Below, one piece after another: positions 1,789-59,269 of a DNA stretch of 64,000 bases. The notes under the pieces were generated by a model. It had not been told where the DNA came from and made no database searches. It saw only the letters and a list, made by a program, of their open reading frames with translations. The DNA comes from Candidatus Woesebacteria bacterium RIFCSPLOWO2_01_FULL_44_24b (GTDB taxonomy: Bacteria > Patescibacteriota > Microgenomatia > UBA8517). Made by a program: the position numbers and the translations under genes. The stretch spans positions 34,467 to 98,466 of the forward strand of contig MGHM01000004.1 in NCBI GenBank assembly GCA_001793235.1. The letters run 5' to 3'. Every line of letters begins with the position of its first letter. Position 1 is the first letter of the stretch.

Positions 1789-4369
<2,581 letters not shown>

Positions 4370-12844: not shown

Positions 12845-15434
12845 CGAGTTCGAATCAAAAATACCAGTCTATAAAATCTCTGCCCAAAAGCAGCTTAATC
12901 GCCAAGTCCCTCCTGCAGCACACACTCCAATGTACATCTGGCATAAGTATTGGTCCAGAAAAACCTGGAATGTCATTGCTGAATTTGTAAAAACATATTG
13001 CCCTGAAAATGGAATCGTTTTTGATCCCTTTGCTGGTAGTGGGATAGTTGCAATGGAAGCTTTAAAAAATAAAAGACGGGCAATAGTCGCAGATATTTCC
13101 CCAATTGCTACAGAAATTACAAGGCTTACCATCAAGCCTGTTTCGGTTGAAAAGCTCCACGAAGTTTATAAAACAGTAGAAGGCAAAGTAAAAGACAAGA
13201 TTCTAGATTTATACAAAACAAAGTGTAGAAAATGTGGCAATGAATTCCCGTTGACTTGTGCTATATGGAAACAAAAAAGGCAGTCTTCTGACAAGCCCAT
13301 CTCGCGAGAGTGTATAGATATCCGGTATAAAGCATGCCCTAAATGTGGTGATAGAAAGGAAAAAGACAATCCTCCAAATTCCTTTGACTTTGAAAAACTA
13401 AAACAGATTGACGAGATGGAAATAAAAGAATGGTACCCAAAAAACAGGCTATATCACATTAACGGTAAACCATTCATGAAAAAAGAAAAATACGAATCTG
13501 TAGATGAATTATTTACTAAAAGAAATCTTCAGGCTCTTGCGTGGCTGATGGAAGCCATAGAGGAGGAAACAAATAGAGATTTAAGAGACTTTTTGAAGAT
13601 TGCTTTTACTTCAATGGTCCATTTATGTACGACCATGTGCCCAATATCTGAGGGGGGTCATTTCACTCCTTATAGTTCGGCCTGGACCCAACAAAGTTAT
13701 TGGTTCCCATCCGGGCCGTTCATGGAACAAAATGTTTGGCTTAAATTTGAAGGTTCAATGATTGGCAATCAAGGTTTGCTCAACGGAAAGAATGAGAGTA
13801 ATAAGTACTTTAAAGATGTAAAATTCGCTCAATCTTTTGAAGAAGTTGTGAATGGTGAAGCTGACATTTTTATCTACACTGGTTCGTCTTTTGATCTTAT
13901 TAAGCAAATGCGTAATGTATCTGGCAATTCTGGATGCGCGGATTATATTTTTACTGACCCACCATACGATTCTTCAATCCAATATGGGGAACTTGCCTAC
14001 ATGTGGATTTCCTGGCTTAAAAAAGATGAAGGGTACCTTGAAAAGATAGCGACAGATGAAGTTATACACAACAAACAGCAAGAAAAAAGTTTCGACACCT
14101 ACCATTCCTTACTTTCTAGGAGCTTTGAAGAAATGTATTCAGTTTTGAAACCAGATGCCTATTTGACTGTCACATTTCATAACCCTACATTTAAAGTCAG
14201 AAACGCGACAATTCGGGCAGGGGTTATTGCAGGCTTTGAACTGCAAAAAATCCACCATCAGGAATTGGCACGAGCCTCTGCAAAATCGCTTTTACAACCA
14301 TTTGGTTCCGCGCAAGGTGACTTTTACTTGCGATTTTTCAAGCCTCCACAGGACGAAAAATCGATAGAGCCTGAAGCAATAGATGAAGCTAGATTTGAAA
14401 AAATAGTAATAGACACAGCAACTCAAATTATTGCTGAGCGCGGCGAGCCCACACCGTATACAATTCTCATTAATGCGATTGACCCGGAACTTGCTAAAAG
14501 AGGATTTTTCTCTGAGCTAAAAACAGGATTAAACATTAATACTGTTCTTGAGTCGCGTTTAAACAACGAATTCACTCTAGTTAAAGCAAAATTAGGTGGA
14601 GCTGAGGGTGACCTTTGGTGGTTTAGTAATCCGTCAAATATTTCTCATCTTGAAAAAATACCCCTAAGCGAGCGCGTTGAACAAACAGTTTTGCGATTTC
14701 TTCAAAAGCAGGGAAGGTCTACTTTTACTGAAGTGTGGGATGCTGTTAGTAGAGAGTTTCCTAACTCACTCACTTCAGACCAAATGAGCATTAAAGATGC
14801 ACTCAAAGCTTACGCGAAGCCTATCTCTGGAGGCAACTGGCTCATCAAACCAAATTCCAAACAAGGAGAGATAGAGCGAGACCACACAATTATTATTGCC
14901 ACACTTGCCAAAATTGGAAAATCTCAAGGATATGATATATGGATTGGAAAAGTTGAGCAGTCTCACATAATTCCTGAGTCTATGAACGGAGGGAAAAAGT
15001 TAGGAGAACTTGTAACATACAAAAATATTAGATCACTTACAAACATACAAAACCCTGATACAGTAGAAGATATTGACTTACTTTGGATAAAAGATGACCA
15101 AATCGTTTGTGCATTCGAAATTGAATCTACTACTTCTATGACAAGTGGATTGCAAAGAGGGTCAAATATTGATAGTTCTGTACCAAAATTTCTAGTAATG
15201 CCTGAAGAAAGAGAGTCGCAATTATTTCAAAAAATGAAATCTCCGATGTTTATCGAACGCTTTCAAAACGACAGTTGGAAAGTTATATACTTTGGTGCTT
15301 TAACAGAAGAGTATATGAAGTCGAAAGGGAAAACTAATATATTTAAGTTAGAGAACAAAAAGGTCGTAGATAAGATGTCTCAAAAAACTTCTAAAAATCA
15401 ACTTGATTTGTTCAATAATAAGTTGAAAAGTTAG
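12834..15434 (+). CDS. DNA (N6-adenine/N4-cytosine) methyltransferase, 866 aa, with inserted zinc ribbon and C-terminal winged-helix plus PD-(D/E)xK-like region
   Basis: SAM motif I is HKYWSRKTWNVIAEFV...VFDPFAGSGIVAMEA at about 13000-13050, and catalytic motif IV is TDPPYDSS at about 13957-13980. A CxxC...CxxC segment (CRKCGN...CPKCGD) lies between them. The C-terminal 350 aa contain IDLLWIKDDQIVCAFEIEST. The gene is AT-richer than its neighbours. Confidence 0.75.
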   Translation: MTPDEFESKIPVYKISAQKQLNRQVPPAAHTPMYIWHKYWSRKTWNVIAEFVKTYCPENGIVFDPFAGSGIVAMEALKNKRRAIVADISPIATEITRLTIKPVSVEKLHEVYKTVEGKVKDKILDLYKTKCRKCGNEFPLTCAIWKQKRQSSDKPISRECIDIRYKACPKCGDRKEKDNPPNSFDFEKLKQIDEMEIKEWYPKNRLYHINGKPFMKKEKYESVDELFTKRNLQALAWLMEAIEEETNRDLRDFLKIAFTSMVHLCTTMCPISEGGHFTPYSSAWTQQSYWFPSGPFMEQNVWLKFEGSMIGNQGLLNGKNESNKYFKDVKFAQSFEEVVNGEADIFIYTGSSFDLIKQMRNVSGNSGCADYIFTDPPYDSSIQYGELAYMWISWLKKDEGYLEKIATDEVIHNKQQEKSFDTYHSLLSRSFEEMYSVLKPDAYLTVTFHNPTFKVRNATIRAGVIAGFELQKIHHQELARASAKSLLQPFGSAQGDFYLRFFKPPQDEKSIEPEAIDEARFEKIVIDTATQIIAERGEPTPYTILINAIDPELAKRGFFSELKTGLNINTVLESRLNNEFTLVKAKLGGAEGDLWWFSNPSNISHLEKIPLSERVEQTVLRFLQKQGRSTFTEVWDAVSREFPNSLTSDQMSIKDALKAYAKPISGGNWLIKPNSKQGEIERDHTIIIATLAKIGKSQGYDIWIGKVEQSHIIPESMNGGKKLGELVTYKNIRSLTNIQNPDTVEDIDLLWIKDDQIVCAFEIESTTSMTSGLQRGSNIDSSVPKFLVMPEERESQLFQKMKSPMFIERFQNDSWKVIYFGALTEEYMKSKGKTNIFKLENKKVVDKMSQKTSKNQLDLFNNKLKS

Positions 15435-16690
15435 GCTTCCCTAATCGCTTTACTTACAAGTTTATGATGGTAGCTTCTCGCAAAGCGGTGGGCTTCATCG
15501 CGCAGTCTTTGAACCAGTTTTTTTGCCGGACTTTCAGGGAGCTCAAACTCATGAAATTCGCCTTGGGTTTTCAAAATTAAAGTCTCCTCACGCTTGGCTA
15601 AGCCAACTACCGGCACTTCGTTGATCACCTCAAGTGCCGCCGAGAGCTGACCTTTACCACCGTCGACTATTATTAAATCCGGTTTTCCCCATGTTTCAAA
15701 CCTGTGTTTCCTTTTAATTAGTACAGATTTTAAAGACCCTACATCATCACTTTTCTTTTTGTCTGAAACTTTATAGTGCCTGTAAAGAGTCTTATCCGGC
15801 TCCCCGTCAATAAAAGTCACCATGGATGCCGTGGGATAAGTGCCTGCCAAGTGGGCCACGTCAAAACATTCGATTCTGTTTAGGTTTTTTATTTCGAAAA
15901 ATTGTACCAAAATCTTTTTTAAACTTATGAGCTCGTTCTCTCTAATATCCTCCAATAGGTTCGGGTTTTCAATATAGCCATCGTCAAGCTCCTCACGGGT
16001 GGTCGTGTAGCTTAGGGCTTCAAGTTTTCTTTTGACATGAGCAGCCTCTTCAAATTTTTCGAGTTTTGAATAATTTGTCATTTCAAGCTCTAACTGATTC
16101 ATTATTAACTTGGATTTACCGGCTAAAATTGCGTTAACCCTTCGCACATTGAGCAAATAGTCTTTTCTTAGTTCCGGATTTTTAACAACCTCGCTTGGGC
16201 ATGGATTGCAAAGCCCGATTTGACTGTAGACACACGGGCGTTTGCCGGGCTTGTGAGTACTGAACGGAAAAATTCTTCGCACAAGTTTTAATACCCGCTT
16301 GGGTGCATTACCGTTTATAAAAGGCCCATAAACATGTTTTAGCTTTTGCTTAGTTAACTCCCTTTGGCGCAAAAGTATTATGCGTGGTAACTCATCAGGA
16401 GTAATTCCAATATAGAGCGAGCTTTTGTCATCCCTCAGAGCAAAATTATATTTCGGCTCATATTTACGGACTAACTTAGCTTCAAGTAAAAGCGCCTCAA
16501 ATTCGGAGGAAACAGGAATGTAATTTAGGAATTTTGCCGTGCTCACCATCTTGGCGGTTTTCGGTGCTAGTCCGCCAGCAAAATAAGAACGAACACGGTT
16601 TTTCAGGTTTTTGGCCTTGCCTACATAAATTACCCGCCTGTGGGCATCGCGAAAAAGATAAACACCGGACAGCTCCGGAGGTAGCTTCAT
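15431..16690 (-). CDS. uvrC: excinuclease ABC subunit C, short form lacking the C-terminal (HhH)2 domain
   Basis: GIY-YIG domain (LPPELSGVYLFRDAHRRVIYVGKAKNLKNRVRSYF), a UVR/UvrB-interacting segment (EKFEEAAHVKRKLEAL) and an RNase-H-like endonuclease domain (IECFDVAHLAGTYPTASMVTF...IVDGGKGQLSAA). The start is trimmed to MKLPPE at 16690, with an ATGA overlap onto the upstream gene. Confidence 0.85.
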   Translation of the reverse strand: MKLPPELSGVYLFRDAHRRVIYVGKAKNLKNRVRSYFAGGLAPKTAKMVSTAKFLNYIPVSSEFEALLLEAKLVRKYEPKYNFALRDDKSSLYIGITPDELPRIILLRQRELTKQKLKHVYGPFINGNAPKRVLKLVRRIFPFSTHKPGKRPCVYSQIGLCNPCPSEVVKNPELRKDYLLNVRRVNAILAGKSKLIMNQLELEMTNYSKLEKFEEAAHVKRKLEALSYTTTREELDDGYIENPNLLEDIRENELISLKKILVQFFEIKNLNRIECFDVAHLAGTYPTASMVTFIDGEPDKTLYRHYKVSDKKKSDDVGSLKSVLIKRKHRFETWGKPDLIIVDGGKGQLSAALEVINEVPVVGLAKREETLILKTQGEFHEFELPESPAKKLVQRLRDEAHRFARSYHHKLVSKAIREA

Positions 16691-18453
16691 TTTCTTCTCC
16701 TTATATAAATAACGACACCCGCTACACAAAAAACAACAGTTAAGCTGATTGCAATAACGTCCCTAGCTAGAGCAGGGTTTTTGTTGGTGGCAAACTCCTC
16801 GCGTGCATTTCCGACGTAAAGCTCGGCCGTTTCTGGCATCGAACTTCCCAAAAAGCCATAGGGGACAGTAAACTCAAGAATTCTTTTTTCATAAGGTAAA
16901 AGAGTTGTGAGATTGCTTTCATATTTTTTTGCACTGTCAAAAAAAAGTTCCACCTTCTGGTCATACAAGGCCGCGGGCCCGGGATTTTCAATTTCAGCCA
17001 CAAGCACCAGTCCTTGAAAAGGTAGGCTCCCCCGCTGTGAGATTGAGATTGCCGGAATCGAGCTTGTATTTTGAGGCAACTCTCCCAGAGCAACGAATAC
17101 ATCCTTTTGAGGGTTAGCTCCCAATTTGTACGAGCCGGGGGGGATGGGGAGCTCGGGGCTCACGCCATGCATAACAAAGTTTATGTGCCGCATGTCGAGC
17201 TTTGTGAAATAGTCAACTCCGCCGGTTGTCTTGCCCCAAGTCGGGTCTACCGGTACCCAGAGGTCACGCTCGCTATCCCAATATTCGGGCCACGCATGAA
17301 GCACATCGGCAACAAGGGCTAAAGGTCTTAAACTCGTGTTGTCTGTATATGCATAACCATTCACTTCGCGGGCCGGTATTCCCTTCGCGCGCGCAAGAGC
17401 AATAAAAAGGTCAGTGAATTCGGTGCAAATCGATTCGGCAGGGTTTTCGAGCGCCGACAGAGCCCCTAACCTTTTGCTCCCCGTAGTGACTTTCTCATAG
17501 TTATAATTCAAGGTATTGACGACGTAATCATAAATTTCTTTCGGACTAGCCAAGCCATTGGCAATTTCTACAACCTTTGGATCTTCTACTTGCCAATATA
17601 CACTTCCTTCAAGAGGGCTGTTTGATGCAAATTGCCTCCATGGAGACGCGAAAACCTGTACTACACCGATTGCGCGAACGTCGAGTCTCTCGCGTGCGTG
17701 AAGATTATAAACCGCGAGCCAATTGCCGTCAGGGTCCACTAATATGTTATCCGGTTTGGGGCTAACAGACTGATAGAAAATTTTTTGAAAAGAAGTATCC
17801 GGAGGGAGCGCAACTTCCATTTCAGTCGGAAGTGCCAGGGGGTTTTGAAGATGGTAGGTAAGATCAAAAGAGAATACCTGAAATTTACCAAACGCAGCAC
17901 TTACGCCCAAAGTAACAACTGCCTTATCAAAATAATAAGTCGTAAATCCCCCCGTACCAAGTTCATTGTCAGGAGGCGGCGACATGTATGAATGCGCACC
18001 AAAACTGTTCGGAACCTTAAGCCTGATTAAGTAAGTATCGAATGTTTCTGTCGCGAGCTTGGGTATTGAAACTTCAGTTACATCTCCGGAAACTCTGACC
18101 ACAGACGCATCCAAATACTCTATCGTAAAATTTTGCGAATTACCCTCTCCCACAATAGACTCGTCAAAAAGAACTTTAAGTTTTACTACATCACCTTTAG
18201 TGAGCTCGACCTCGAGTTCCCCATCTTCGGTAAAGGCACGCGCCTGACTAACTTCGGCGCCCTTCAAAGAAAGAGTGAAATCTGTAGCATGGACCTCGGT
18301 TGTTGCATTGGTAATGGAAATTTCCTGAGTGACTTTGGTTGCACTTCCGTCAACTTCATAAGTGGCCTCACCCGAAACCAAAAAGTCATCAGTGGCATAT
18401 GCAATTTTTGGGGATAGTATCAGTAAAAAAAATACAGCAATAAATTTCTTCAT
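16687..18453 (-). CDS. secreted transglutaminase-like domain protein with C-terminal TM anchor
   Basis: Signal peptide, a long beta-rich N-terminal region, then a transglutaminase core Cys-His-Asp triad (ICTEFTDLFIALARAKGIPAREVNGY...HAWPEYW...D) and a terminal hydrophobic helix followed by RRRK. Confidence 0.7.
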   Translation of the reverse strand: MKKFIAVFFLLILSPKIAYATDDFLVSGEATYEVDGSATKVTQEISITNATTEVHATDFTLSLKGAEVSQARAFTEDGELEVELTKGDVVKLKVLFDESIVGEGNSQNFTIEYLDASVVRVSGDVTEVSIPKLATETFDTYLIRLKVPNSFGAHSYMSPPPDNELGTGGFTTYYFDKAVVTLGVSAAFGKFQVFSFDLTYHLQNPLALPTEMEVALPPDTSFQKIFYQSVSPKPDNILVDPDGNWLAVYNLHARERLDVRAIGVVQVFASPWRQFASNSPLEGSVYWQVEDPKVVEIANGLASPKEIYDYVVNTLNYNYEKVTTGSKRLGALSALENPAESICTEFTDLFIALARAKGIPAREVNGYAYTDNTSLRPLALVADVLHAWPEYWDSERDLWVPVDPTWGKTTGGVDYFTKLDMRHINFVMHGVSPELPIPPGSYKLGANPQKDVFVALGELPQNTSSIPAISISQRGSLPFQGLVLVAEIENPGPAALYDQKVELFFDSAKKYESNLTTLLPYEKRILEFTVPYGFLGSSMPETAELYVGNAREEFATNKNPALARDVIAISLTVVFCVAGVVIYIRRRK

Positions 18454-18464
18454 GGCCTAGTTTA

Positions 18465-21365
18465 CTACAAAGTGTGCTCGAGAAACTTTCCGGTGTGTGT
18501 TTTTGCATTTTTAATTTCATTTGGCTCCCCCTCAGCGACTACTCGCCCGCCAAGCTCCCCACCTTCGGGGCCCAGTTCAATTAGCCAATCAGCATTTTTA
18601 ATGACATCTAAGTTGTGCTCTATGACAATTACCGTGTTGCCACGCTCGACCAGAATCTTCAAGACCGCAACCAACTTTTCCAGATCTGCAAAATGAAGAC
18701 CGGTCGTTGGCTCGTCCAAAATATAAACCGTTTTTCCTGTAGCTTTTTTAGATAACTCAGTCGCAAGTTTAACTCGCTGGGCCTCGCCTCCCGAGAGAGT
18801 CGTTGCTGCTTGCCCAAGCTCCATGTAGTCAAGCCCGACGGCCTTCAAGGTCTCAAGCTTTGCAACTATATTTTTATAAACATGGAAAAACTCAAGTGCT
18901 TCCTCAACAGTCATTGCAAGAACCTCGGCTATACTTTTTCCTTTATATGTCACTTCCAAGGTCTGACTACCGTAGCGCGCACCGTGGCAAACTTCACAAT
19001 CAACCCAAATGTCCGGCATAAACTGCATCTCAATTTTGATTTTGCCCTGGCCTTCACAGACTTCGCAGCGCCCACCTTTGACGTTAAAGCTGAATCTGCC
19101 TTTTTTAAAGCCCAAGGTTTTGGCTTCACGAGTAAGCGCAAATACATCGCGAATTAAATCAAACACTTTTGTATAAGTCGCGGGGTTACTTCTCGGGGTT
19201 CGCCCAATTGGCGCCTGATCAATAAGGACCACTTTATCTATTAATTCATCCCCTTCAATTCGTGTAAATTCACCCGCCTGCTCCCTGTGATATTTATTAA
19301 GAGATTTAGCGAGGGCGTGGTAAAGGGTCTCAACCACAAGGGTTGACTTGCCGGATCCAGAAACTCCAGTCACCGCTATGAACTTGCCCAAGGGGAAATG
19401 TACATCTATATTTTTAAGATTAAACTGACTTGCACCAAAAAGACCTAAGTTTCCGCCTCCGTTTTGGGAAACTTTAGGAAAGCGAATTACGCGCCTTCCA
19501 GATAAATACTTGCCGGTGAGAGACTCACCGCCTTTAATCTCCTCCAGAGTCCCTTGGGCAACCACACCACCACCGTGTTTACCAGCTCCCGGGCCAAAGT
19601 CAAAAACATAGTCGGCAGAGCTTATTACATCACGGTCATGCTCCACCACCACAACGGTATTCCCCAAATCTCTGAGCTTTTTTAATGTAGCAATCAAAAG
19701 TTCGTTATCCCGGGGATGAAGGCCAATAGTGGGCTCATCCAAGACATACAAAACTCCCGTAAGGCCTGAGCCAATTTGGCTGGCCAGGCGTATGCGAGCA
19801 GCCTCCCCTCCAGAAAGCGTATTAGCCGCGCGAGAGACAGTCAAATAGTCAAGCCCGACGTTAATGAGAAAATTAAGTCTGGCGATAATTTCTTTGAGTA
19901 CCAGGCCTGCAATCTCACTCTCACGATTTGACAGGATTTTTCCGTCTTTTAGCTCCTTTGCCCAAACCAATGTGTCTTTCACAGCTATATCAGTAACCTC
20001 ACTTATATTCTGGCCATTGATTGTGATACTCAAAGCTTCTTTTTTAAGCCTCGCTCCGTGGCAGTCCTCACAAACTACCTCGGTCATGTATTTTTCAATG
20101 CCACTTTTAATGTAGTCCGAGTCACTTGTGTGGTAGCGCCGCTCAAGCTCAGTCAAAACCCCCGGCCAGGCTTCAGTTATATAAGTCATCCTGCCAAAAC
20201 GATTTGTGCCCTCTACCCGGTAAGTCTTGCCACTCGTTCCTTCCAACAAAATCTTTTTCTGATCTGGAGTATATTTTTTAATTGCCATATCCGGGTCAAT
20301 GCCGTTTTCCTGTAGTGCCGCCAAAATGAGTCTCGAAAGCCAAGTATCGTGTTCAAAAGTGGAAGCATACGGAATTACACCGCCTTCAAGCACAGAAAGC
20401 TCAGGCGCAAGTACGCGAGCTGGATCCACTTTCAAGATTCTCCCCAGCCCTGCGCAAGTTGGGCAAGCTCCATGGGGAGAGTTGAAAGAGAAAGTTCTTG
20501 GCTCAAGCTCGGGAAGGCTGATGTTATCAACTGGACAAGCAAATTTTTCTGAAAAAAGGTGGTCCTCAAAAACTTTTGGGTATTCCGGCATTTCGAAGCC
20601 GCTATCAAATATCTTACTCACGACCGCCGAGCCATCCGAAAGCTTGAGAGCCTGCTCGATGCCGTCATTAACACGAGTGCTAAGGCTTTTGACAAATAGC
20701 TCATCTTTTAAGTCATTTGTCGAAGCTGAAATTCTGTCGATCACCACATCTATCGAGTGCTTATTGGTTTTGATTAACACGAAATCTTCATCCAAATCGT
20801 GAATTTCTCCATCTAACCGGACACGCCTGTAACCTTTGGACTTCAAGTTTGCAAAAAGCGCACTGAATTCCCCTTTTCTGTCTTTGATAATGGGAGCAAA
20901 GATCATAAACCTGGCTTGTTTTCCTGCCCCTCCCATAATTAAATCCATCACAGCACCTGCTATTTGCTCAGTAGTCTGGCTTGAAATTTCACGGCCACAA
21001 ATCGGGCAATGCGGGTGACCCGCTCGCGCCCAGAGTAGCCGCAGATAGTCATAAATCTCAGTAACCGTTCCAACTGTCGAGCGCGGATTGTGAGAAGTAG
21101 TTTTTTGGTCAATGGAGATGGCGGGCGAGAGCCCTTCAATCAAGTCAACATCAGGTTTGCCCATAATCCCCAAAAATTGCCTGGCATAAGTGGACAGGGA
21201 CTCAACGTAGCGTCTTTGCCCTTCGGCGTAAATCGTGTCAAAAGCTAAGGAACTTTTGCCACTACCCGAGACTCCAGTAAAAACAACCAGCTTGTTTTTG
21301 GGAATATCAATATCAATATTTTTGAGGTTATGCTGTCTAGCCCCCCGGACTTTAATATAATCCAT
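18465..21365 (-). CDS. uvrA: excinuclease ABC subunit A
   Basis: Two ABC ATPase modules with zinc fingers. The canonical N-terminus MDYIKVRGARQHNLKNIDIDIPKNKLVVFTGVSGSGKSSL begins at the second ATG (21363-21365). The first ATG (21377) overlaps the TATAAT -10 box. Confidence 0.95.
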   Translation of the reverse strand: MDYIKVRGARQHNLKNIDIDIPKNKLVVFTGVSGSGKSSLAFDTIYAEGQRRYVESLSTYARQFLGIMGKPDVDLIEGLSPAISIDQKTTSHNPRSTVGTVTEIYDYLRLLWARAGHPHCPICGREISSQTTEQIAGAVMDLIMGGAGKQARFMIFAPIIKDRKGEFSALFANLKSKGYRRVRLDGEIHDLDEDFVLIKTNKHSIDVVIDRISASTNDLKDELFVKSLSTRVNDGIEQALKLSDGSAVVSKIFDSGFEMPEYPKVFEDHLFSEKFACPVDNISLPELEPRTFSFNSPHGACPTCAGLGRILKVDPARVLAPELSVLEGGVIPYASTFEHDTWLSRLILAALQENGIDPDMAIKKYTPDQKKILLEGTSGKTYRVEGTNRFGRMTYITEAWPGVLTELERRYHTSDSDYIKSGIEKYMTEVVCEDCHGARLKKEALSITINGQNISEVTDIAVKDTLVWAKELKDGKILSNRESEIAGLVLKEIIARLNFLINVGLDYLTVSRAANTLSGGEAARIRLASQIGSGLTGVLYVLDEPTIGLHPRDNELLIATLKKLRDLGNTVVVVEHDRDVISSADYVFDFGPGAGKHGGGVVAQGTLEEIKGGESLTGKYLSGRRVIRFPKVSQNGGGNLGLFGASQFNLKNIDVHFPLGKFIAVTGVSGSGKSTLVVETLYHALAKSLNKYHREQAGEFTRIEGDELIDKVVLIDQAPIGRTPRSNPATYTKVFDLIRDVFALTREAKTLGFKKGRFSFNVKGGRCEVCEGQGKIKIEMQFMPDIWVDCEVCHGARYGSQTLEVTYKGKSIAEVLAMTVEEALEFFHVYKNIVAKLETLKAVGLDYMELGQAATTLSGGEAQRVKLATELSKKATGKTVYILDEPTTGLHFADLEKLVAVLKILVERGNTVIVIEHNLDVIKNADWLIELGPEGGELGGRVVAEGEPNEIKNAKTHTGKFLEHTL

Positions 21366-21410
21366 ACGACCTATCATTATACCAGATATTTGTTCGGGTT
21401 TTGTAAGTAG
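21366..21410 (-). promoter_or_regulatory. uvrA promoter with extended -10 (TGGTATAAT) and an upstream conserved motif shared with the uvrB/lexA region (candidate SOS operator)
   Basis: In gene orientation the region reads CTACTTACAAAACCCGAACAAATATCTGGTATAATGATAGGTCGTATG. The same arrangement (CTACTAACATTACCCGAAC...TGTATAATGAT) is found upstream of uvrB. Confidence 0.5.
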
Positions 21411-21425
21411 GTTGATTCGAATAAT

Positions 21426-21728
21426 CTAACTTGAAGCAAAGGATTTTTCGAGTTTATTCACTTTTTCCCGCAATTCTTCAAACTCCTCCCTTGAGACTGA
21501 TGTAGACTTTATCAGCTTTATTTTTCCATTAACAATTCTGTCGTTAACAGTAATCTTTTCATCTAAATCTTTCACCTGATCGCTTAAACCATCCACTTTC
21601 TTTTCTAGTTTATCAAGCCTGGCATTGCTTTCATCAAACATTTTTTGCATACCGGAAAGTATTGTGTCTACGGCTTCCATTAGCATAACTTCATTAACTA
21701 ACTTAGAGTCTCCATTTCCTTTTGGCAT
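21426..21728 (-). CDS. coiled-coil hypothetical protein (100 aa)
   Basis: ORF with charged heptad-like repeats (KLEKKVDGLSDQVKDLDEKI). No domain was recognised. Confidence 0.4.
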   Translation of the reverse strand: MPKGNGDSKLVNEVMLMEAVDTILSGMQKMFDESNARLDKLEKKVDGLSDQVKDLDEKITVNDRIVNGKIKLIKSTSVSREEFEELREKVNKLEKSFASS

Positions 21729-21761
21729 TTGAAAATCAGTATATCATAATTCCAACTCCCT

Positions 21762-21800
21762 AACTTTATCCCTAATCTCAATTGCCAGCTCAAAAACTCA
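21762..21800. repeat. duplicated copy of the uvrB 3' end (direct repeat of 23149-23185)
   Basis: 29 of 32 nt in the core match. On the minus strand 21741-21800 translates to *VFELAIEIRDKVRELEL*, the same peptide as the UvrB C-terminus with synonymous differences. The copy lies outside any annotated ORF. Confidence 0.7.
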
Positions 21801-21809
21801 TAACAATTT

Positions 21810-23135
21810 TTATTCTTCATCCAGGAGGCCCCATCTGCTCAGAACTTCATTCTTAAGCTGCCTAACTCTCTCGTGACCTATCCCATATCTCTGGCCAATT
21901 TCTTTTAAAGTTGTTTTGCTGGACGCGGCAGATAATTCATAATATTCCACAATAACATTGTAACTTCTTTCGTCAGTTGCTCTAAGATTTTCAAGGGCGT
22001 TATCATTATCAGCAAGATAACTAACCAATCTTCGCCACATTTCCCAGCGCCCAATTGGCAAATCCTCGGGAGGTAACTTTTCACCCACTATAAATCCATT
22101 CCTGAATTCATCCCATTGTATTCTATCTGTCTCAGCTCGTTTTACCCTCTCTAATTTATTCCGAAGTGCTTTAGCCCGATCGACATATCTGCTGGCAACT
22201 ATGTCTGTGAATCCAAGATTCAACAATACTGCGTTTGAGCCATTCTGAACTGAATGATAAGAAATACCAAGTTCTTCTGCTATCTTAACCATTGAATTAG
22301 ATTTAGACGAGAGAAACATAGCGTCGGCAACATCGATTTCTGGGAATTCATATTTTCTTAGTTCTGCTAGAAACAGCTTTTTTTCTGGATCTTTTAAAGC
22401 CTCAACAACAAACTTTCTTTTGTTTTCATGCTCTTCAGTTATTATCCCTTCGTCATAGTACACACTGTTTCTGTCTCTTTGAACTCTTATTTCGATACCC
22501 TTTTCAGACAATATTTTTTTTGCAGCTTGAGAAACATGCGTCGTCATAATAGAAGGGGGGACCTGAATAACCTCTAATTCTGGAGCCTGGTCAAGTATAC
22601 GCTCTAAACTTGACTGACTGAGAAGTGGTGGTTTTGAAATATGAAGTATCCTTGTCTTCCTGTTTATTGCGGCCAAATCTTCAAGCTCTGATACCTGTAA
22701 ATACCCCTTGCTTGCAAGATATCTATCATCAGGTTTGTCACTTTTGTCAATTTTAAGCCTGCTACGACGTCGTGGCTGACTATGAGTGGGACCGAAATCT
22801 TCTTGCGATTCTTCTGCGTGTTCGATGCCAAGTAAGTTCTCAACCTCACGTTTATTAGTTTGAACTTGTTTTCTAACAAATGCCAATATCGTATTGTCTC
22901 CTAAGTCTTTTTGAGGAGTTGTCAATAAGTCAGACAATTTTTGGTCTTGGTCAAGTTCATCCCAAAATGCTTTAATTGACCCATCCGAAGTCACAAAATC
23001 ATAGACTCCTCTAACTGCTTTTAACATAATGTCATTTGCCTCATCGCCAAGTTCCGGTTCCAAAACCCTGCAAAGATTTTGGTAAAACTCAGATTCAGGT
23101 AATTGATAGTTTAAGTTGCGTTCAGTCGATGTCAT
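21810..23135 (-). CDS. hypothetical protein with two C-terminal sigma-70-region-4-like HTH motifs. It is a single-gene insertion within the uvrB 3' end
   Basis: 441 aa. The C-terminal half contains NSMVKIAEELGISYHSVQN and TLKEIGQRYGIGHERVRQLKNEVLSRW, both region-4-like. The N-terminal 240 aa are unassigned. The ATG overlaps the uvrB stop (ATGA). Confidence 0.55.
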   Translation of the reverse strand: MTSTERNLNYQLPESEFYQNLCRVLEPELGDEANDIMLKAVRGVYDFVTSDGSIKAFWDELDQDQKLSDLLTTPQKDLGDNTILAFVRKQVQTNKREVENLLGIEHAEESQEDFGPTHSQPRRRSRLKIDKSDKPDDRYLASKGYLQVSELEDLAAINRKTRILHISKPPLLSQSSLERILDQAPELEVIQVPPSIMTTHVSQAAKKILSEKGIEIRVQRDRNSVYYDEGIITEEHENKRKFVVEALKDPEKKLFLAELRKYEFPEIDVADAMFLSSKSNSMVKIAEELGISYHSVQNGSNAVLLNLGFTDIVASRYVDRAKALRNKLERVKRAETDRIQWDEFRNGFIVGEKLPPEDLPIGRWEMWRRLVSYLADNDNALENLRATDERSYNVIVEYYELSAASSKTTLKEIGQRYGIGHERVRQLKNEVLSRWGLLDEE

Positions 23136-25144
23136 TCTAATTCTCGTACTTTATCCCTAATTTCAATTGCCAACTCGAAGTTAAGAGCCTCGGCGGCGAG
23201 TTTCATCTCCCGCCTTAACTTTCTCGCCAGCCTTTTTTTGTCCATCGGGGTAAGAGCATCAAGTTCAATATCGGGAAGCCTTGCATAAGTAATATCCCGG
23301 TCCTCAAGGGCCAAACTGGCAGCTTCTACATCGCGGTCAACAAGTTTTTCGCGGATTGGCTTTTCAATCGGCGTTGGAACGATGCCAAGTTTTTTATTCA
23401 TAGCAAGCTGATACTCTCGCCTGCGATCAACTTCGTCTAAAGCCCTCTTCATGGAGCCTGTGATACTGTCGGCATACAAAATCACTTTACCTTCAATGTG
23501 GCGCGCGGCACGGCCCATTGTCTGAATCAAGGTGACATCGCTTCGCAAAAAACCCTCTTTGTCGGCATCCAAAATCGCGACCAAAGAAACCTCTGGCAAA
23601 TCAAGGCCTTCACGAAGCAAATTTATCCCCACCAAACAGTCATATTTGCCGCTTCTTAAGTCATCCAGAATGTCAGTTCTATCAAGAGTGTGCACATCCG
23701 AGTGCAGATAGGCTACATCAATACCCTGCTCTTTCAGGTATTCCGCCAGGTCCTCGGCAGTGCGCTTGGTCAAAGTAGTCACTAAAGTTCGCTGGCCTTT
23801 TAATTTTTTGAGTTTAATTTCTTCAATTACATCAGAAACTTGAGTTTTAATCGGGCGCACTTCCACCTCCGGGTCGGGAATCCCAGTTGGCCGTACAAGC
23901 TGCTCAACAATATTTTTCTTCCCGGACATAGTCTTTTCCCACTCTGCCGGTGTTGCCGAAGTCGCAATAAATCTCGGGATTCTACGCATAAATTCTTCAA
24001 AAGTTAATGGACGGTTGTCGTAGGCAGCAGGAAGCCTAAAGCCATAATCAATTAAAGTTTTCTTCCGTGACAAATCCCCCGCATACATGCCACGAACTTG
24101 GGGGAAAGAAATGTGCGACTCATCGGCTATGACGAGCCATTTATTTCCATAAGCCTCCTGAAAGTAGTCCAAGAGGCTGTGGGGGGCATCTCCGGGAGCA
24201 CGGCCGTCAAAGTATCTGGAGTAATTTTCAATACCTTTGACATAGCCGATTTCCTCAATCATCTCAAGGTCATAAGTAACTTTTTGCTTTATTCTATTGG
24301 CCTCAAGAATCTTGCCCTGGCTCTCAAAAAACCCAACTCGCTCCGTGAGGTCAGAACGGATTTTTTCAAAAACCTGCTTGTTGTTTGTTGGATCTGTAAT
24401 AAAGTGCTTAGAGGGAAAAAGCATAAAGGCGGTGGACAGCTTTTCAAGAAGCTTGCCCGAAATCGGATCAATTATATTCACAGTCTTAATTTTGCCTTCT
24501 GCAATCTCTAAGTCCACACCTTGATCCTGATAGGAAGGGAAAATTGAAATAGTGTCACCACGGACGCGAAAAGTGCCTCTATGGAAGCCAAACTCACCGC
24601 GCTCATATTGAAGGTCAACGAGCCTGTCAATTATTTGCTCACGGGTGATGCGCATTCCGGGGGCAAACTCAAAAACGAATTTGCCGTACTCTTTTGGTGA
24701 ACCGATATTATAAATACAGCTGACCGAGGCTACAACTATCACATCTTTTCTGGTTAAAATATTTGCCGTTGCCTCAAGCCTGAGCTTATCTATTAGCTCA
24801 TTTATATCTGAATCTTTTTCAATATACGTGTCTGTTGAGGGAATGTAGGCTTCTGGTTGATAGTAATCATAGTAGCTCACGAAATAGCTCACAGCATTTT
24901 CCGGGAAAAAATCCCTGAACTCCTGATAAAGCTGGGCGGCCAGAGTTTTGTTGTGAGAAATTATTAAAGTCGGCATCTGAAGCTTCTCGATAGTATTGGC
25001 AACCGTAAAAGTTTTTCCAGAACCGGTTACACCAAGAAGAACTTGATACTTCTCGTTATTTTTTACTCGCTCAACAAGTGCATCAACAGCTTTCTTCTGA
25101 TCACGCACCGGCGAGAATCTTGATTTAATCTTGAATTTCCCCAT
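23132..25144 (-). CDS. uvrB: excinuclease ABC subunit B
   Basis: Contains helicase motifs (GVTGSGKTF), a beta-hairpin region and the C-terminal UvrC-interaction helix ...FELAIEIRDKVRELE*. Confidence 0.95.
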   Translation of the reverse strand: MGKFKIKSRFSPVRDQKKAVDALVERVKNNEKYQVLLGVTGSGKTFTVANTIEKLQMPTLIISHNKTLAAQLYQEFRDFFPENAVSYFVSYYDYYQPEAYIPSTDTYIEKDSDINELIDKLRLEATANILTRKDVIVVASVSCIYNIGSPKEYGKFVFEFAPGMRITREQIIDRLVDLQYERGEFGFHRGTFRVRGDTISIFPSYQDQGVDLEIAEGKIKTVNIIDPISGKLLEKLSTAFMLFPSKHFITDPTNNKQVFEKIRSDLTERVGFFESQGKILEANRIKQKVTYDLEMIEEIGYVKGIENYSRYFDGRAPGDAPHSLLDYFQEAYGNKWLVIADESHISFPQVRGMYAGDLSRKKTLIDYGFRLPAAYDNRPLTFEEFMRRIPRFIATSATPAEWEKTMSGKKNIVEQLVRPTGIPDPEVEVRPIKTQVSDVIEEIKLKKLKGQRTLVTTLTKRTAEDLAEYLKEQGIDVAYLHSDVHTLDRTDILDDLRSGKYDCLVGINLLREGLDLPEVSLVAILDADKEGFLRSDVTLIQTMGRAARHIEGKVILYADSITGSMKRALDEVDRRREYQLAMNKKLGIVPTPIEKPIREKLVDRDVEAASLALEDRDITYARLPDIELDALTPMDKKRLARKLRREMKLAAEALNFELAIEIRDKVRELE

Positions 25145-25145
25145 G

Positions 25146-25223
25146 AAGCATCATTATACAATATTTGCTACTTGACACGTTCGGGTAATGTTAGTAGTAT
25201 GATTTTACAAACAAAATACAAAC
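25146..25223. promoter_or_regulatory. divergent uvrB / lexA control region with an extended -10 for uvrB, a TTGACA-17-TAGTAT promoter for lexA and a conserved candidate operator
   Basis: Plus strand reads ATCATTATACAATATTTGCTACTTGACACGTTCGGGTAATGTTAGTAG. The 19-mer GTTCGGGTAATGTTAGTAG (25179-25197) sits in the lexA promoter spacer and is near-identical to the 19-mer upstream of uvrA. There is an imperfect inverted repeat CTACTTGACA-N11-TGTTAGTAG. Confidence 0.5.
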
Positions 25224-25850
25224 ATGGCACCCATACTTTACAGACGTCAGAGACAAATTGTTGATTTTATACAGCAATATATTCAAGCAAATAGTACAGC
25301 CCCAACACTTCGCCAAATCGCCGATGCCATCGGAGTATCTTCACTCGCCACAGTCCATGAGCACCTTGCATCTTTGCAATATAAAGGCATAATCAAGCGA
25401 AAATCCGGGAAAAACCGATCCATTGAATTGGTAGACAAAACTCTCGACTTTCATATGGAAAAGGCAGTAGAGGTTCCAATTCTTGGCTTCATTGCCGCAG
25501 GTAAACCAATTGAGCCATACACAGACCCGCATGCAAAAATATTTATTGGCCCGGCATTTATATCGAGTAAAAAACGTGTTTATGTACTTCAAGTCCGCGG
25601 GGAAAGTATGATCGAGGAGCAAATCCGCGACGGGGATTATGTTGTTGTTGAAGAAACCGAGGAAGCCAGAAACGGCCAGATAGTGGTGGCGCTTTTAGAT
25701 AACGGCATGGCAACCTTAAAGCGCTTTTTCAAAGAAGCCACCAGAATCCGCCTTGAGCCAGCAAACGCTACAATGGCCCCGATTTTCGTCAAAAACGTCA
25801 CCATTCAAGGTAAAGTCGTCGGGCTTATCCGAAAATACCACTCAACCTAG
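25224..25850 (+). CDS. lexA: LexA repressor (S24 peptidase)
   Basis: N-terminal winged HTH, Ala-Gly cleavage site (IAAGKPIEP), catalytic Ser (VRGESM) and Lys (ATLKRF). Confidence 0.85.
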   Translation: MAPILYRRQRQIVDFIQQYIQANSTAPTLRQIADAIGVSSLATVHEHLASLQYKGIIKRKSGKNRSIELVDKTLDFHMEKAVEVPILGFIAAGKPIEPYTDPHAKIFIGPAFISSKKRVYVLQVRGESMIEEQIRDGDYVVVEETEEARNGQIVVALLDNGMATLKRFFKEATRIRLEPANATMAPIFVKNVTIQGKVVGLIRKYHST

Positions 25851-50354: not shown

Positions 50355-50428
50355 CGGGACCGACGGGGCTCGAACCCGCAACCTCTGCCGTGACAGGGCA
50401 GCACTCTGACCAATTGAGCTACGGTCCC
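50355..50428 (-). tRNA. tRNA-Asp (GTC), no encoded CCA
   Basis: The minus-strand sequence GGGACCGTAGCTCAATTGG...CTGCCCTGTCACGGCAG...GCGGGTTCGAGCCCCGTCGGTCCCG forms a cloverleaf with anticodon GTC. Confidence 0.85.
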
Positions 50429-51579: not shown

Positions 51580-52179
51580 TTGCACGAATCTACCATAAGC
51601 ACAGTCTTGGGATTTTTAGTTATAGTAGTGGTTGGTCTTCTTGTTGTTAATTACTTTAGAAATCTGGACTCAGGGGAGACTTTCCCCACATCAGCAACTA
51701 CCGAAGAAGGAAACGATCAAGAAACCTATACTGTGGCAGCAGGAGACTCACTCTGGACAATATCCGAAAAGGTATATGGTACCGGATACAATTGGGTAGA
51801 TATAAGAGACGCCAATGACATTCAAAACCCGAATGACGTAGAAGAAGGGCAAGTTCTTATTATTCCCGAACTTGAGGACCAAGGTGCTGAGCTTGCTGAA
51901 GCGGTGGTCACAAGTACACCCTCACCGGCGCCGACTATCTCACCAACTCCCAGTCCAACAGCCTCACCAAAAGGTGAAATTGCATCAGTTGAAACTATCA
52001 ACCAAATGCCCGAAGCAAACGCAGGCGGCAGCTACACTGTTGTGAAGGGTGACAATCTTTGGAATATCGCAGTTGCGGCATACGGAGATGGATTCAGGTG
52101 GGTCGACATAGCTCGCGCAAATCACTTGGCTAATCCACAAGTAATCCACGCAGGAAACGTTCTGACCATACCCGCTTGA
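51580..52179 (+). CDS. membrane-anchored protein with two LysM domains
   Basis: A TM helix followed by two LysM repeats (YTVAAGDSLWTISEKVYG..., YTVVKGDNLWNIAVAAYG...). The track start is a TTG. A strong promoter, TTGACT-N16-TATAAA, lies at about 51463-51490. Confidence 0.7.
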   Translation: MHESTISTVLGFLVIVVVGLLVVNYFRNLDSGETFPTSATTEEGNDQETYTVAAGDSLWTISEKVYGTGYNWVDIRDANDIQNPNDVEEGQVLIIPELEDQGAELAEAVVTSTPSPAPTISPTPSPTASPKGEIASVETINQMPEANAGGSYTVVKGDNLWNIAVAAYGDGFRWVDIARANHLANPQVIHAGNVLTIPA

Positions 52180-52257: not shown

Positions 52258-52328
52258 GCGGGTATAGTTGAATGGCCCAACACCACCTTCCCAAGGTGGG
52301 GATAGGGGTTCGATTCCCCTTACCCGCT
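52258..52328 (+). tRNA. tRNA-Gly (CCC)
   Basis: GCGGGTATAGTTGAATGG...CCACCTTCCCAAGGTGG...GGGGTTCGATTCCCCTTACCCGCT with anticodon loop TTCCCAA. Confidence 0.85.
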
Positions 52329-52407: not shown

Positions 52408-52483
52408 GCCAAAGTAGCTCAGTTGGTAGAGCAATCCCTTCGTAAGGGAAAGGTCGTGGGTTCGACTCCCACCTTTGGCTCCA
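52408..52483 (+). tRNA. tRNA-Thr (CGT) with encoded CCA
   Basis: GCCAAAGTAGCTCAGTTGGTAGAGCAATCCCTTCGTAAGGGAAAGGTCGTGGGTTCGACTCCCACCTTTGGCTCCA with anticodon CGT. Confidence 0.85.
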
Positions 52484-59197: not shown

Positions 59198-59269
59198 TGG
59201 ATCCGGATGGAATCGAACCATCGACCTTTCCGATGTGAACGGAACGCTCTACCGCTGAGCCACGGATCC
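59198..59269 (-). tRNA. tRNA-Val (CAC)
   Basis: The minus-strand sequence GGATCCGTGGCTCAGCGGTAGAGCGTTCCGTTCACATCGGAAAGGTCGATGGTTCGATTCCATCCGGATCCA has anticodon loop TTCACAT. Confidence 0.85.

Follow-up and report, generated by a model that had tools for sequence, protein, structure and literature searches.

Among the recognition motifs published for LexA, the repressor of the SOS response, are GAAC-N4-GTTC, CTGT-N8-ACAG and the alphaproteobacterial GTTC-N7-GTTC (PMC4951493, PMC8565304). The closest described system is that of the Patescibacteria, whose LexA was the subject of a study (Sanchez-Osuna, Barbe and Erill, Environ Microbiol 2017, PMID 28618189) that a later paper of the Erill laboratory cites among the cases in which LexA came to recognise a direct repeat (PMC7739468), and the same laboratory enters the LexA proteins of a Collierbacteria (Microgenomates) and a Parcubacteria under that reference as experimentally validated (PMC8565304 Table S2). 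As far as these citing papers describe it, the 2017 motif comes from the same superphylum and the same Microgenomates group as the bacterium considered here, and its validated LexA proteins come from GW2011 groundwater genomes, the naming series of four of the loci compared below (L008, L017, L020, L039). The subject of this report is a short repeated element in a 64,000-nucleotide stretch of the genome of Candidatus Woesebacteria bacterium RIFCSPLOWO2_01_FULL_44_24b (contig MGHM01000004.1, positions 34,467 to 98,466; hereafter the window). The element lies at the promoters of lexA, uvrB and uvrA, and is very probably the LexA (SOS) operator of this Woesebacterium, a reading that draws on its observed conservation and placement, on its co-variation with the LexA recognition helix, and on the intact cleavage apparatus of the LexA protein encoded beside it.

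For comparison with the described motifs we used 46 lexA promoters of Woesebacteria and other Microgenomates, namely that of the window and those of the 45 best lexA loci of a genome collection (LexA identity 67-87%), together with an outgroup set of 33 lexA loci in other phyla whose LexA homologues are 41-51% identical; L-numbers such as L001 denote the loci of relatives that were compared with the window. The element resembles the alphaproteobacterial box, which has been reported for Acidobacterium capsulatum as well, in being a TTC-containing tetramer repeated with an 11-bp period at lexA and uvr promoters. It differs from that box in that the tetramer is TTCG, shifted by one base, with a G preceding TTC in only 5 of the 46 sites, and in that the first repeat is extended to TTCGGGT while the second is degenerate. 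The element does not fit the consensus of that family; strict GTTC-N7-GTTC is present in only one of 45 Woesebacteria and one of 33 outgroup lexA promoters. The half-site of the Firmicutes and Actinobacteria (Cheo) box GAAC-N4-GTTC resembles GTTCG, yet in the present element the half-sites follow one another head-to-tail, 11 bp from one to the next, and are not inverted. An earlier note on this DNA had observed that the 19-mer at the core of the element does not match the classical LexA boxes, and this holds throughout the comparison, as CTGT-N8-ACAG and GAAC-N4-GTTC occur in none of the 45 Woesebacteria and none of the 33 outgroup lexA upstream regions. The CGAAC half-site that the note had picked out did not survive the same comparison: the base that completes it is present in only 5 of the 46 lexA sites, and the conserved core is ACCCGAA. 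Because a direct-repeat LexA motif of Patescibacteria was published in 2017, the element is best filed as a further instance of an operator type already described for Patescibacteria, and not as novel in kind. The proposal of a lineage-specific LexA operator thus stands as to the operator, whereas its novelty was overstated, since related LexA proteins in other phyla appear to use the same repeat and a Patescibacteria direct-repeat motif was already in print.

Two copies of the element in the window

With up to three mismatches allowed, the degenerate 19-mer CTACTWACAWWACCCGAAC occurs exactly twice in the 64 kb, at the uvrA and lexA/uvrB sites. The expected number is 0.08, and two or more matches arose in none of 100 shuffles. 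On the uvrA side the copy CTACTTACAAAACCCGAAC occupies positions 21410-21392 on the minus strand, and is followed by AAATATC, the predicted extended -10 TGGTATAAT, the spacer GATAGGTCGT and ATG; on the uvrB side the copy CTACTAACATTACCCGAAC occupies positions 25197-25179, also on the minus strand, and is followed by 20 nt, TATAAT, GATGCTTC and ATG. Both upstream sequences are present in the window exactly as they had been quoted. They had been described as one shared motif of roughly 40 bp, and although the two copies are real, the operator and the -10 are separate elements, with a gap between them of 10 nt at uvrA and 20 nt at uvrB. An extended -10 had likewise been assigned to both genes; that of uvrA is a canonical TGnTATAAT, whereas at uvrB (TTGTATAAT) the TG abuts the hexamer and there is no TGn.

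A position weight matrix of 16 columns, built from the lexA sites of relatives only and with the -35 and -10 positions excluded, ranks the lexA/uvrB site first in the window (21.9 bits) and the uvrA site second (17.3 bits). In 200 shuffles of the 64 kb, 21.9 bits was reached in 0.5% and 17.3 bits in 8%, so that the significance of the uvrA box lies in its location and in its conservation in relatives. The predicted LexA box shared by the divergent lexA and uvrB genes is GTTCGGGTAATGTTAG (25179..25194, plus strand; TTCG-N7-TTAG), and that of uvrA is GTTCGGGTTTTGTAAG (21392..21407, plus strand; TTCG-N7-TAAG), which reads CTTACAAAACCCGAAC in the orientation of uvrA. Two further matrix matches, at 51819-51834 (11.6 bits) and 51856-51871 (8.2 bits), fall within a LysM-repeat gene and were dismissed as chance matches. 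The sequence ACCCGAAC at 15959 was set aside because it lies within uvrC and occurs at chance frequency, as was TGNTATAATGAT as a specific shared motif, since four matches with at most one mismatch stand against 1.2 expected and the sequence is an ordinary -10. The window also encodes ruvC, dnaE and PolX, and the matrix scan found no box at ruvC, polX or dnaE. There is no recA among the genes of the 64-kb window or in any relative locus examined.

The placement of the 19-mer beside or within core promoters, together with its A/T-rich centre, would be expected of a generic promoter element, UP-like or -35-like. We regard this as highly improbable, as the 64 kb contain only two copies although about 16 further promoters share the -10 architecture, the position of the element differs and its orientation is opposite relative to the -10 when lexA is compared with uvrA and uvrB, and no sigma-70 element resembles the invariant GC-rich core TTCGGG. 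A scan of about 360 kb of Woesebacteria sequence, which includes no complete genome, bears on the same point: the earlier note had taken an abundance of the 19-mer upstream of unrelated housekeeping genes as the mark of a generic element, and in this sequence it is not common there.

Conservation and architecture in Woesebacteria

All 46 lexA promoters carry the arrangement TTGACA-nn-TTCGGGTWWWnTTnG-TA, in which the TTCGG, TT and G columns vary little or not at all. The conserved portion, nTTCGGGTWWWRTTWG, is the reverse complement of the 19-mer and separates a perfect -35 from the -10. In the shared site the 5′ CTA of the 19-mer coincides with the lexA -10, and other uvrA boxes do not keep these three bases. 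Sequence conservation thus points to a functional unit that is not the 19-mer, as had been supposed, and is a 16-bp asymmetric direct repeat, 5′-nTTCGGGTWWWRTTWG-3′ (TTCG-N7-TTNG). Its half-sites are TTCG-like with an 11-bp period, equal to one helical turn; an extended and almost invariant first half-site (TTCGGGT) is paired with a relaxed second one (R-TT-W-G). The relaxed form TTCG-N7-TTNG is found in 43 of the 45 Woesebacteria lexA promoters, against a control value of 2.6. We read it as a direct repeat because of the strict repeats at uvrB, the separate repeat that uvrB carries where it is apart from lexA, and the clean repeats of the outgroups.

With regard to uvrB, a second strict repeat (TTYG-N7-TTBGG, for example CTTTCGCATTAACTTCGGG) adjoins the -10 in gene orientation at 15 of 38 Woesebacteria uvrB genes, against a control of 0.005, in the 70 nt upstream of uvrB (L001, L002, L006, L012, L013, L026-L029, L031, L032, L041, L043). 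In genomes with this extra repeat, uvrB would be under two LexA boxes; the strict extra repeat is not present at the uvrB of the window. In L042 and L164, where uvrB lies apart from lexA, uvrB has a repeat of its own. In about 300 kb of sequence from Woesebacteria relatives, all matches of at least 16 bits lie upstream of lexA/uvrB or of uvrA. The candidate SOS operator of the earlier note is thus borne out by a box that is found at lexA throughout the 46 promoters, again at uvrB and uvrA, and not elsewhere.

Many records labelled 'uncultured Gammaproteobacteria bacterium' (L002, L003, L007, L012, L016, L019, L024, L025 and others) encode a Woesebacteria-like LexA at 70-79% identity, and have the same uvrA-uvrB-lexA-pgm-eno synteny. 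On these grounds their labels look wrong.

The LexA protein and repeats in other phyla

The window and Candidatus Woesebacteria bacterium RIFCSPHIGHO2_01_FULL_44_21 encode the same LexA protein, with 100% identity. Alignment to the E. coli and T. maritima LexA structures indicates that its cleavage apparatus is intact, with the Ala-Gly site (AAG), the serine (GESM) and the lysine (LKRF) in place, and that its linker exceeds the one in E. coli LexA by about 7 residues. The best 120 LexA homologues listed are all at least 73% identical, and none of them falls into the 50-65% gap between Woesebacteria LexA and the outgroups.

Among the outgroups, the strict repeat TTCG-N7-TTCG lies between the lexA -35 and -10 at 27 of 33 loci, against a control of 1.0. 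The carriers, among loci L045-L074 and L079, belong to the Gemmatimonadota, the Vicinamibacteria (Acidobacteriota), the Nitrospinota, the Polarisedimenticolia and the Eisenbacteria, and the lexA promoters of the Gemmatimonadaceae have two such boxes. An alignment of DNA-binding domains revealed the recognition helix S-[LVI]-A-T-[VI]-H-x-H in all aligned LexA proteins whose promoters carry the repeat. Six outgroup loci have no repeat, and the four of these that were aligned (L066, L070, L077, L080) all have different recognition helices. Judged from these sequences, the presence of the repeat tracks the recognition-helix signature of LexA. The helix S-x-A-T-V-H-x-H-L presumably resembles that of Bacillus subtilis LexA.

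Across phyla, lexA is the only gene common to the promoters that bear the repeat, and it is for this reason, together with the co-variation of repeat and recognition helix, that LexA is the likely binder. The box could instead be the operator of another transcription factor dedicated to nucleotide-excision-repair genes, which would be present in lexA promoters only by way of the shared intergenic region. This would fit the divergent arrangement of lexA and uvrB around a shared site in most Woesebacteria, and the fact that every instance away from lexA is at a uvr gene, recA being outside the sequences examined. We consider such a regulator very unlikely, because the box stays in the lexA spacer where uvrB is not beside it (L042 and L164, and L019, L038 and L044, where the neighbour is a non-uvr gene), the same repeat recurs in the lexA promoters of other phyla in step with the LexA recognition helix, and the locus has no second conserved regulator gene.

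The shared box between lexA and uvrB

In the window, the lexA coding sequence (25224..25850, plus strand; TIGR00498, 193 bits) is divergent from that of uvrB (23132..25144, minus strand, with its ATG at 25144-25142; NCBIfam PRK05298, 939 bits). The predicted lexA promoter (25172..25200, plus strand) was located by a promoter scan with 10 of 12 matches, and consists of a -35 TTGACA at 25172-25177, a 17-bp spacer and a -10 TAGTAT at 25195-25200. The spacer (25178-25194) is almost entirely filled by the box. The lexA -10 is followed after 23 nt by the ATG at 25224, with no Shine-Dalgarno sequence between them. On the opposite strand, the predicted uvrB -10 TATAAT (25153..25158) is 20 nt from the box and 8 nt before the uvrB ATG. 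The 20-nt gap between box and uvrB -10 is common to L004, L014, L017, L018, L024 and L075, and the uvrB orthologues of L003, L005, L014, L017 and L075 have an extended -10 of the form TGnTATAAT or TGnTATACT.

Two genes are inserted between uvrB and uvrA (21426..23135, minus strand), one for a 441-aa protein with a sigma-70 region-4-like C-terminus and one for a 100-aa coiled-coil protein. The start of the 441-aa gene overlaps the uvrB stop codon, and the gene is probably transcribed with uvrB, which would place it under the shared box. The coiled-coil gene has its own promoter, TGATATACT, at 21735-21746.

The uvrA box, start codon and probable operon

The uvrA box ends 10 nt upstream of the -10 hexamer, and the predicted extended -10 (21376..21384, minus strand) is in turn 10 nt before the ATG at 21365-21363. 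The uvrA coding sequence (18465..21365, minus strand) specifies 966 amino acids, of which residues 2-966 align to NCBIfam PRK00349 with 1380 bits. That translation truly starts at 21365, as first proposed, is supported by this family profile and by the N-termini of orthologues (MDYIKVRGARQHNLKN in the window, MDDKIKIRGARQHNLK and MENLIKVRGARQHNLKN in relatives). It is equally correct that the first ATG of the long uvrA open reading frame (ORF), at 21377-21375, falls within TATAATG; the ORF call is over-extended by four codons into the gene's own -10.

The uvrA module, consisting of the box, 7 nt, TGnTATAAT, 10 nt and ATG, is kept in two close relatives. In L161 (LexA 91% identical) the region reads CTACTTACAAAACCCGAAT-ATATATC-TGATATAAT-GATAGGTTGT-ATG, and in L162 (LexA 88%) it reads GCCAATAAAACCCGAAT-AATATTT-TGATATAAT-AATAGTTTGT-ATG, although in the latter uvrA is directly 3′ of uvrB. 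In L163 (LexA 89%) the box and TGGTAAAAT are kept, and a leader of about 170 nt with repeats has been gained. Independent uvrA boxes in the same orientation are found in the distant lineages L012, L026, L029, L081, L099 and L100.

These comparisons bear on the possibility that the uvrA copy is a non-functional remnant, duplicated from part of the lexA-uvrB intergenic region or of a promoter cassette and moved by rearrangements in an interval prone to insertion. Such an origin would be consistent with the status of the uvrB-uvrA interval as an insertion hotspot, with an obvious duplicate of the uvrA promoter beside an inserted cassette in L161, with three extra bases (CTA) that both window copies carry and that are unconserved elsewhere, and with the off-consensus second half-site of the uvrA box. 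On the other hand, the box, its spacing and the -10 have been kept in L161, L162, L163 and L100 while the flanks diverge, and the uvrA boxes of independent lineages have the same orientation and are placed either 8-10 or about 20 nt from the -10. A remnant is accordingly very improbable in our judgement, and a retained LexA operator at uvrA is the preferred reading.

The interval itself contains different unrelated genes in each close relative (window 21426-23135; L161 3400-5894; L163 3087-5562; L164 1615-2913). The insert of L161 includes a Gp49/HTH_3 (HigBA-like) pair, those of L163 and L164 are other ORFs of unknown function, and L162 has none. A third box in L161 (5396-5411; GTTCGGGTTTTGTAAG, 17.3 bits), flanked by about 20 bases that are likewise identical, is the duplicate of the uvrA promoter beside this toxin-antitoxin-like cassette, and suggests duplication on insertion. 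In L163, an insertion of three tandem copies of a unit of about 24 nt, AAGCAAAGCTTGCGGGCACGCCTA, separates the promoter of uvrA from its start codon (about 3075-3240, minus strand).

The uvrA box lies 16 nt past the stop codon of the upstream coiled-coil gene, and this position raises the question of an element acting as RNA, either as a terminator of that gene or as a leader structure. There is no stable structure on either strand (folding z-scores 0.96, -0.56, -0.13 and -0.31), no Rfam family at either site, and no terminator at the site in a terminator scan. Moreover, the box is upstream of the predicted transcription start at lexA, uvrB and uvrA. The terminator, Rfam and folding scans effectively refute an explanation at the RNA level, which we hold to be the least probable of the alternatives, and a DNA operator remains the preferred reading.

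Downstream of uvrA and contiguous with it are a transglutaminase-like gene (16687-18453) and uvrC, identified by NCBIfam (together 15431..18453, minus strand). The order of transcription on the minus strand is uvrB, the 441-aa gene, the coiled-coil gene, the uvrA box, uvrA, the transglutaminase-like gene and uvrC. Because the last three genes abut or overlap, and because L162 has them in the same order, they probably form one operon transcribed from the uvrA promoter. The listed uvrC start, TTG 16729, is probably wrong; translation probably starts at ATG 16690, which is preceded by AAGGAG and overlaps the upstream stop codon as ATGA (16690-16687).

Proposed regulation and its weighing

From these sequences a scheme of regulation can be proposed in which LexA binding, repression, induction by damage and the transcription start sites are all predicted. 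A LexA dimer on the 16-bp direct repeat would block RNA polymerase at three promoters. At lexA, where the box fills the spacer between -35 and -10, bound LexA would exclude RNA polymerase and lexA would be autoregulated. At uvrB, whose promoter would depend chiefly on its -10, the same box would cover the -35 region (about -48 to -33), and since the box is 20 nt upstream of this -10 with conserved spacing, a single operator would serve both divergent promoters. At uvrA the second copy would lie at about -38 to -23, in a promoter from which the transglutaminase-like gene and uvrC are probably transcribed as well. The distances from box to -10 at uvrB and uvrA differ by about one helical turn. 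DNA damage would lead to RecA-stimulated self-cleavage of LexA and thereby to the release of all three promoters, so that the derepressed set would comprise lexA, uvrB with the region-4-like gene, and the uvrA/transglutaminase-like/uvrC operon. The outcome would be a compact, minimal SOS regulon, consisting of lexA and the whole UvrABC excinuclease under two operators.

Several points weigh against this scheme. A match that scores as high as the uvrA box turns up in 8% of shuffled 64-kb windows. The repeat has a weak second half-site, which in the uvrA box reads TAAG and so departs from a column in which all 46 lexA sites have T. The majority of other Woesebacteria uvrA genes do not have their own box. 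The predicted position of the box at uvrB, upstream of the -10, is less typical for repression than an overlap with the -10 would be. Furthermore, LexA binding and repression at the box are inferred from sequence, and the match to the 2017 Patescibacteria consensus from the papers that cite that study.

A bolder view, which we regard as doubtful and offer only tentatively, is that the Woesebacteria operator is a derived and strongly asymmetric form, with TTCGGGT extended and TTWG decayed, that may be undescribed. If so, its binding mode would be altered, in that most specific contacts would come from one monomer, possibly with the aid of the longer linker, and a single box would repress two divergent promoters, one of which is leaderless. 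The combination of TTCG-N7-TTCG with the helix S-L-A-T-V-H-x-H would then unite the LexA proteins of Patescibacteria, Gemmatimonadota, Acidobacteriota (Vicinamibacteria), Nitrospinota and Eisenbacteria as one specificity class.

The current understanding of the SOS response is not overturned by these observations. What they add is a well-supported regulatory annotation, in the form of a proposed minimal SOS regulon, for an uncultivated bacterium with a reduced genome, and a usable rule linking the helix S-L/V-A-T-V-H-x-H to TTCG-N7-TTCG that could predict LexA regulons in several poorly studied phyla.

Predicted leaderless promoters

The earlier suggestion that uvrB and uvrA have leaderless or near-leaderless messenger RNAs is well supported by comparison. 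The -10 hexamer is 8 nt from the start codon at uvrB and 10 nt at uvrA, and there is no Shine-Dalgarno (GGAG-like) sequence at either gene; given the 10-nt gap, the uvrA mRNA may have a leader of 2-3 nt. Short gaps are conserved in relatives, at 6-9 nt among uvrB orthologues and 5-13 nt in 28 of 45 lexA orthologues. This layout is a genome-wide habit and not a property of SOS genes. A -10-like hexamer 5-10 nt before the start is present at 16 of the 53 genes of the window (0.30 per gene, compared with 0.022 per internal ATG, or about 14-fold), and only 5 of the 53 starts have a GGAG-like Shine-Dalgarno sequence, mostly within the ATP synthase operon. The leaderless mRNAs of Actinobacteria and Deinococcus are similar in that the -10 is 5-10 nt before the start and the Shine-Dalgarno sequence is missing; those of the window are predicted from sequence. 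There is a consequence for gene calling, as starts in this lineage are often preceded by a -10 hexamer and not by a ribosome-binding site, and since the -10 is so near the start codon, automatically called ORFs can run into it, as was the case for uvrA.

In most other Woesebacteria uvrA is not leaderless (L004, L015, L016, L018, L023, L024, L029, L032, L034, L081, L084-L088). These genes have a TGnTATAAT promoter of their own, which is followed by a short GC-rich hairpin (CCGNCGG, a loop and CCGNYGG) that ends 4-10 nt before the start codon. Folded as single sequences, 17 of 19 form this hairpin at -8 to -18 kcal/mol, and its 3′ arm runs into a G-rich, Shine-Dalgarno-like run. The hairpin has no Rfam match, and RNAalifold found no consensus on a MAFFT alignment in which the stems were out of register. 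Its role may be to stabilise the 5′ end or to control translation.

The Rfam scan of the window and eight loci gave five tRNAs only, all in the window, at 613-686, 50355-50428, 52258-52328, 52408-52480 and 59198-59269. Since the start of a 214-aa ORF (610-1254) overlies the first of these, that ORF, or at any rate its 5′ part, is probably not a real gene.

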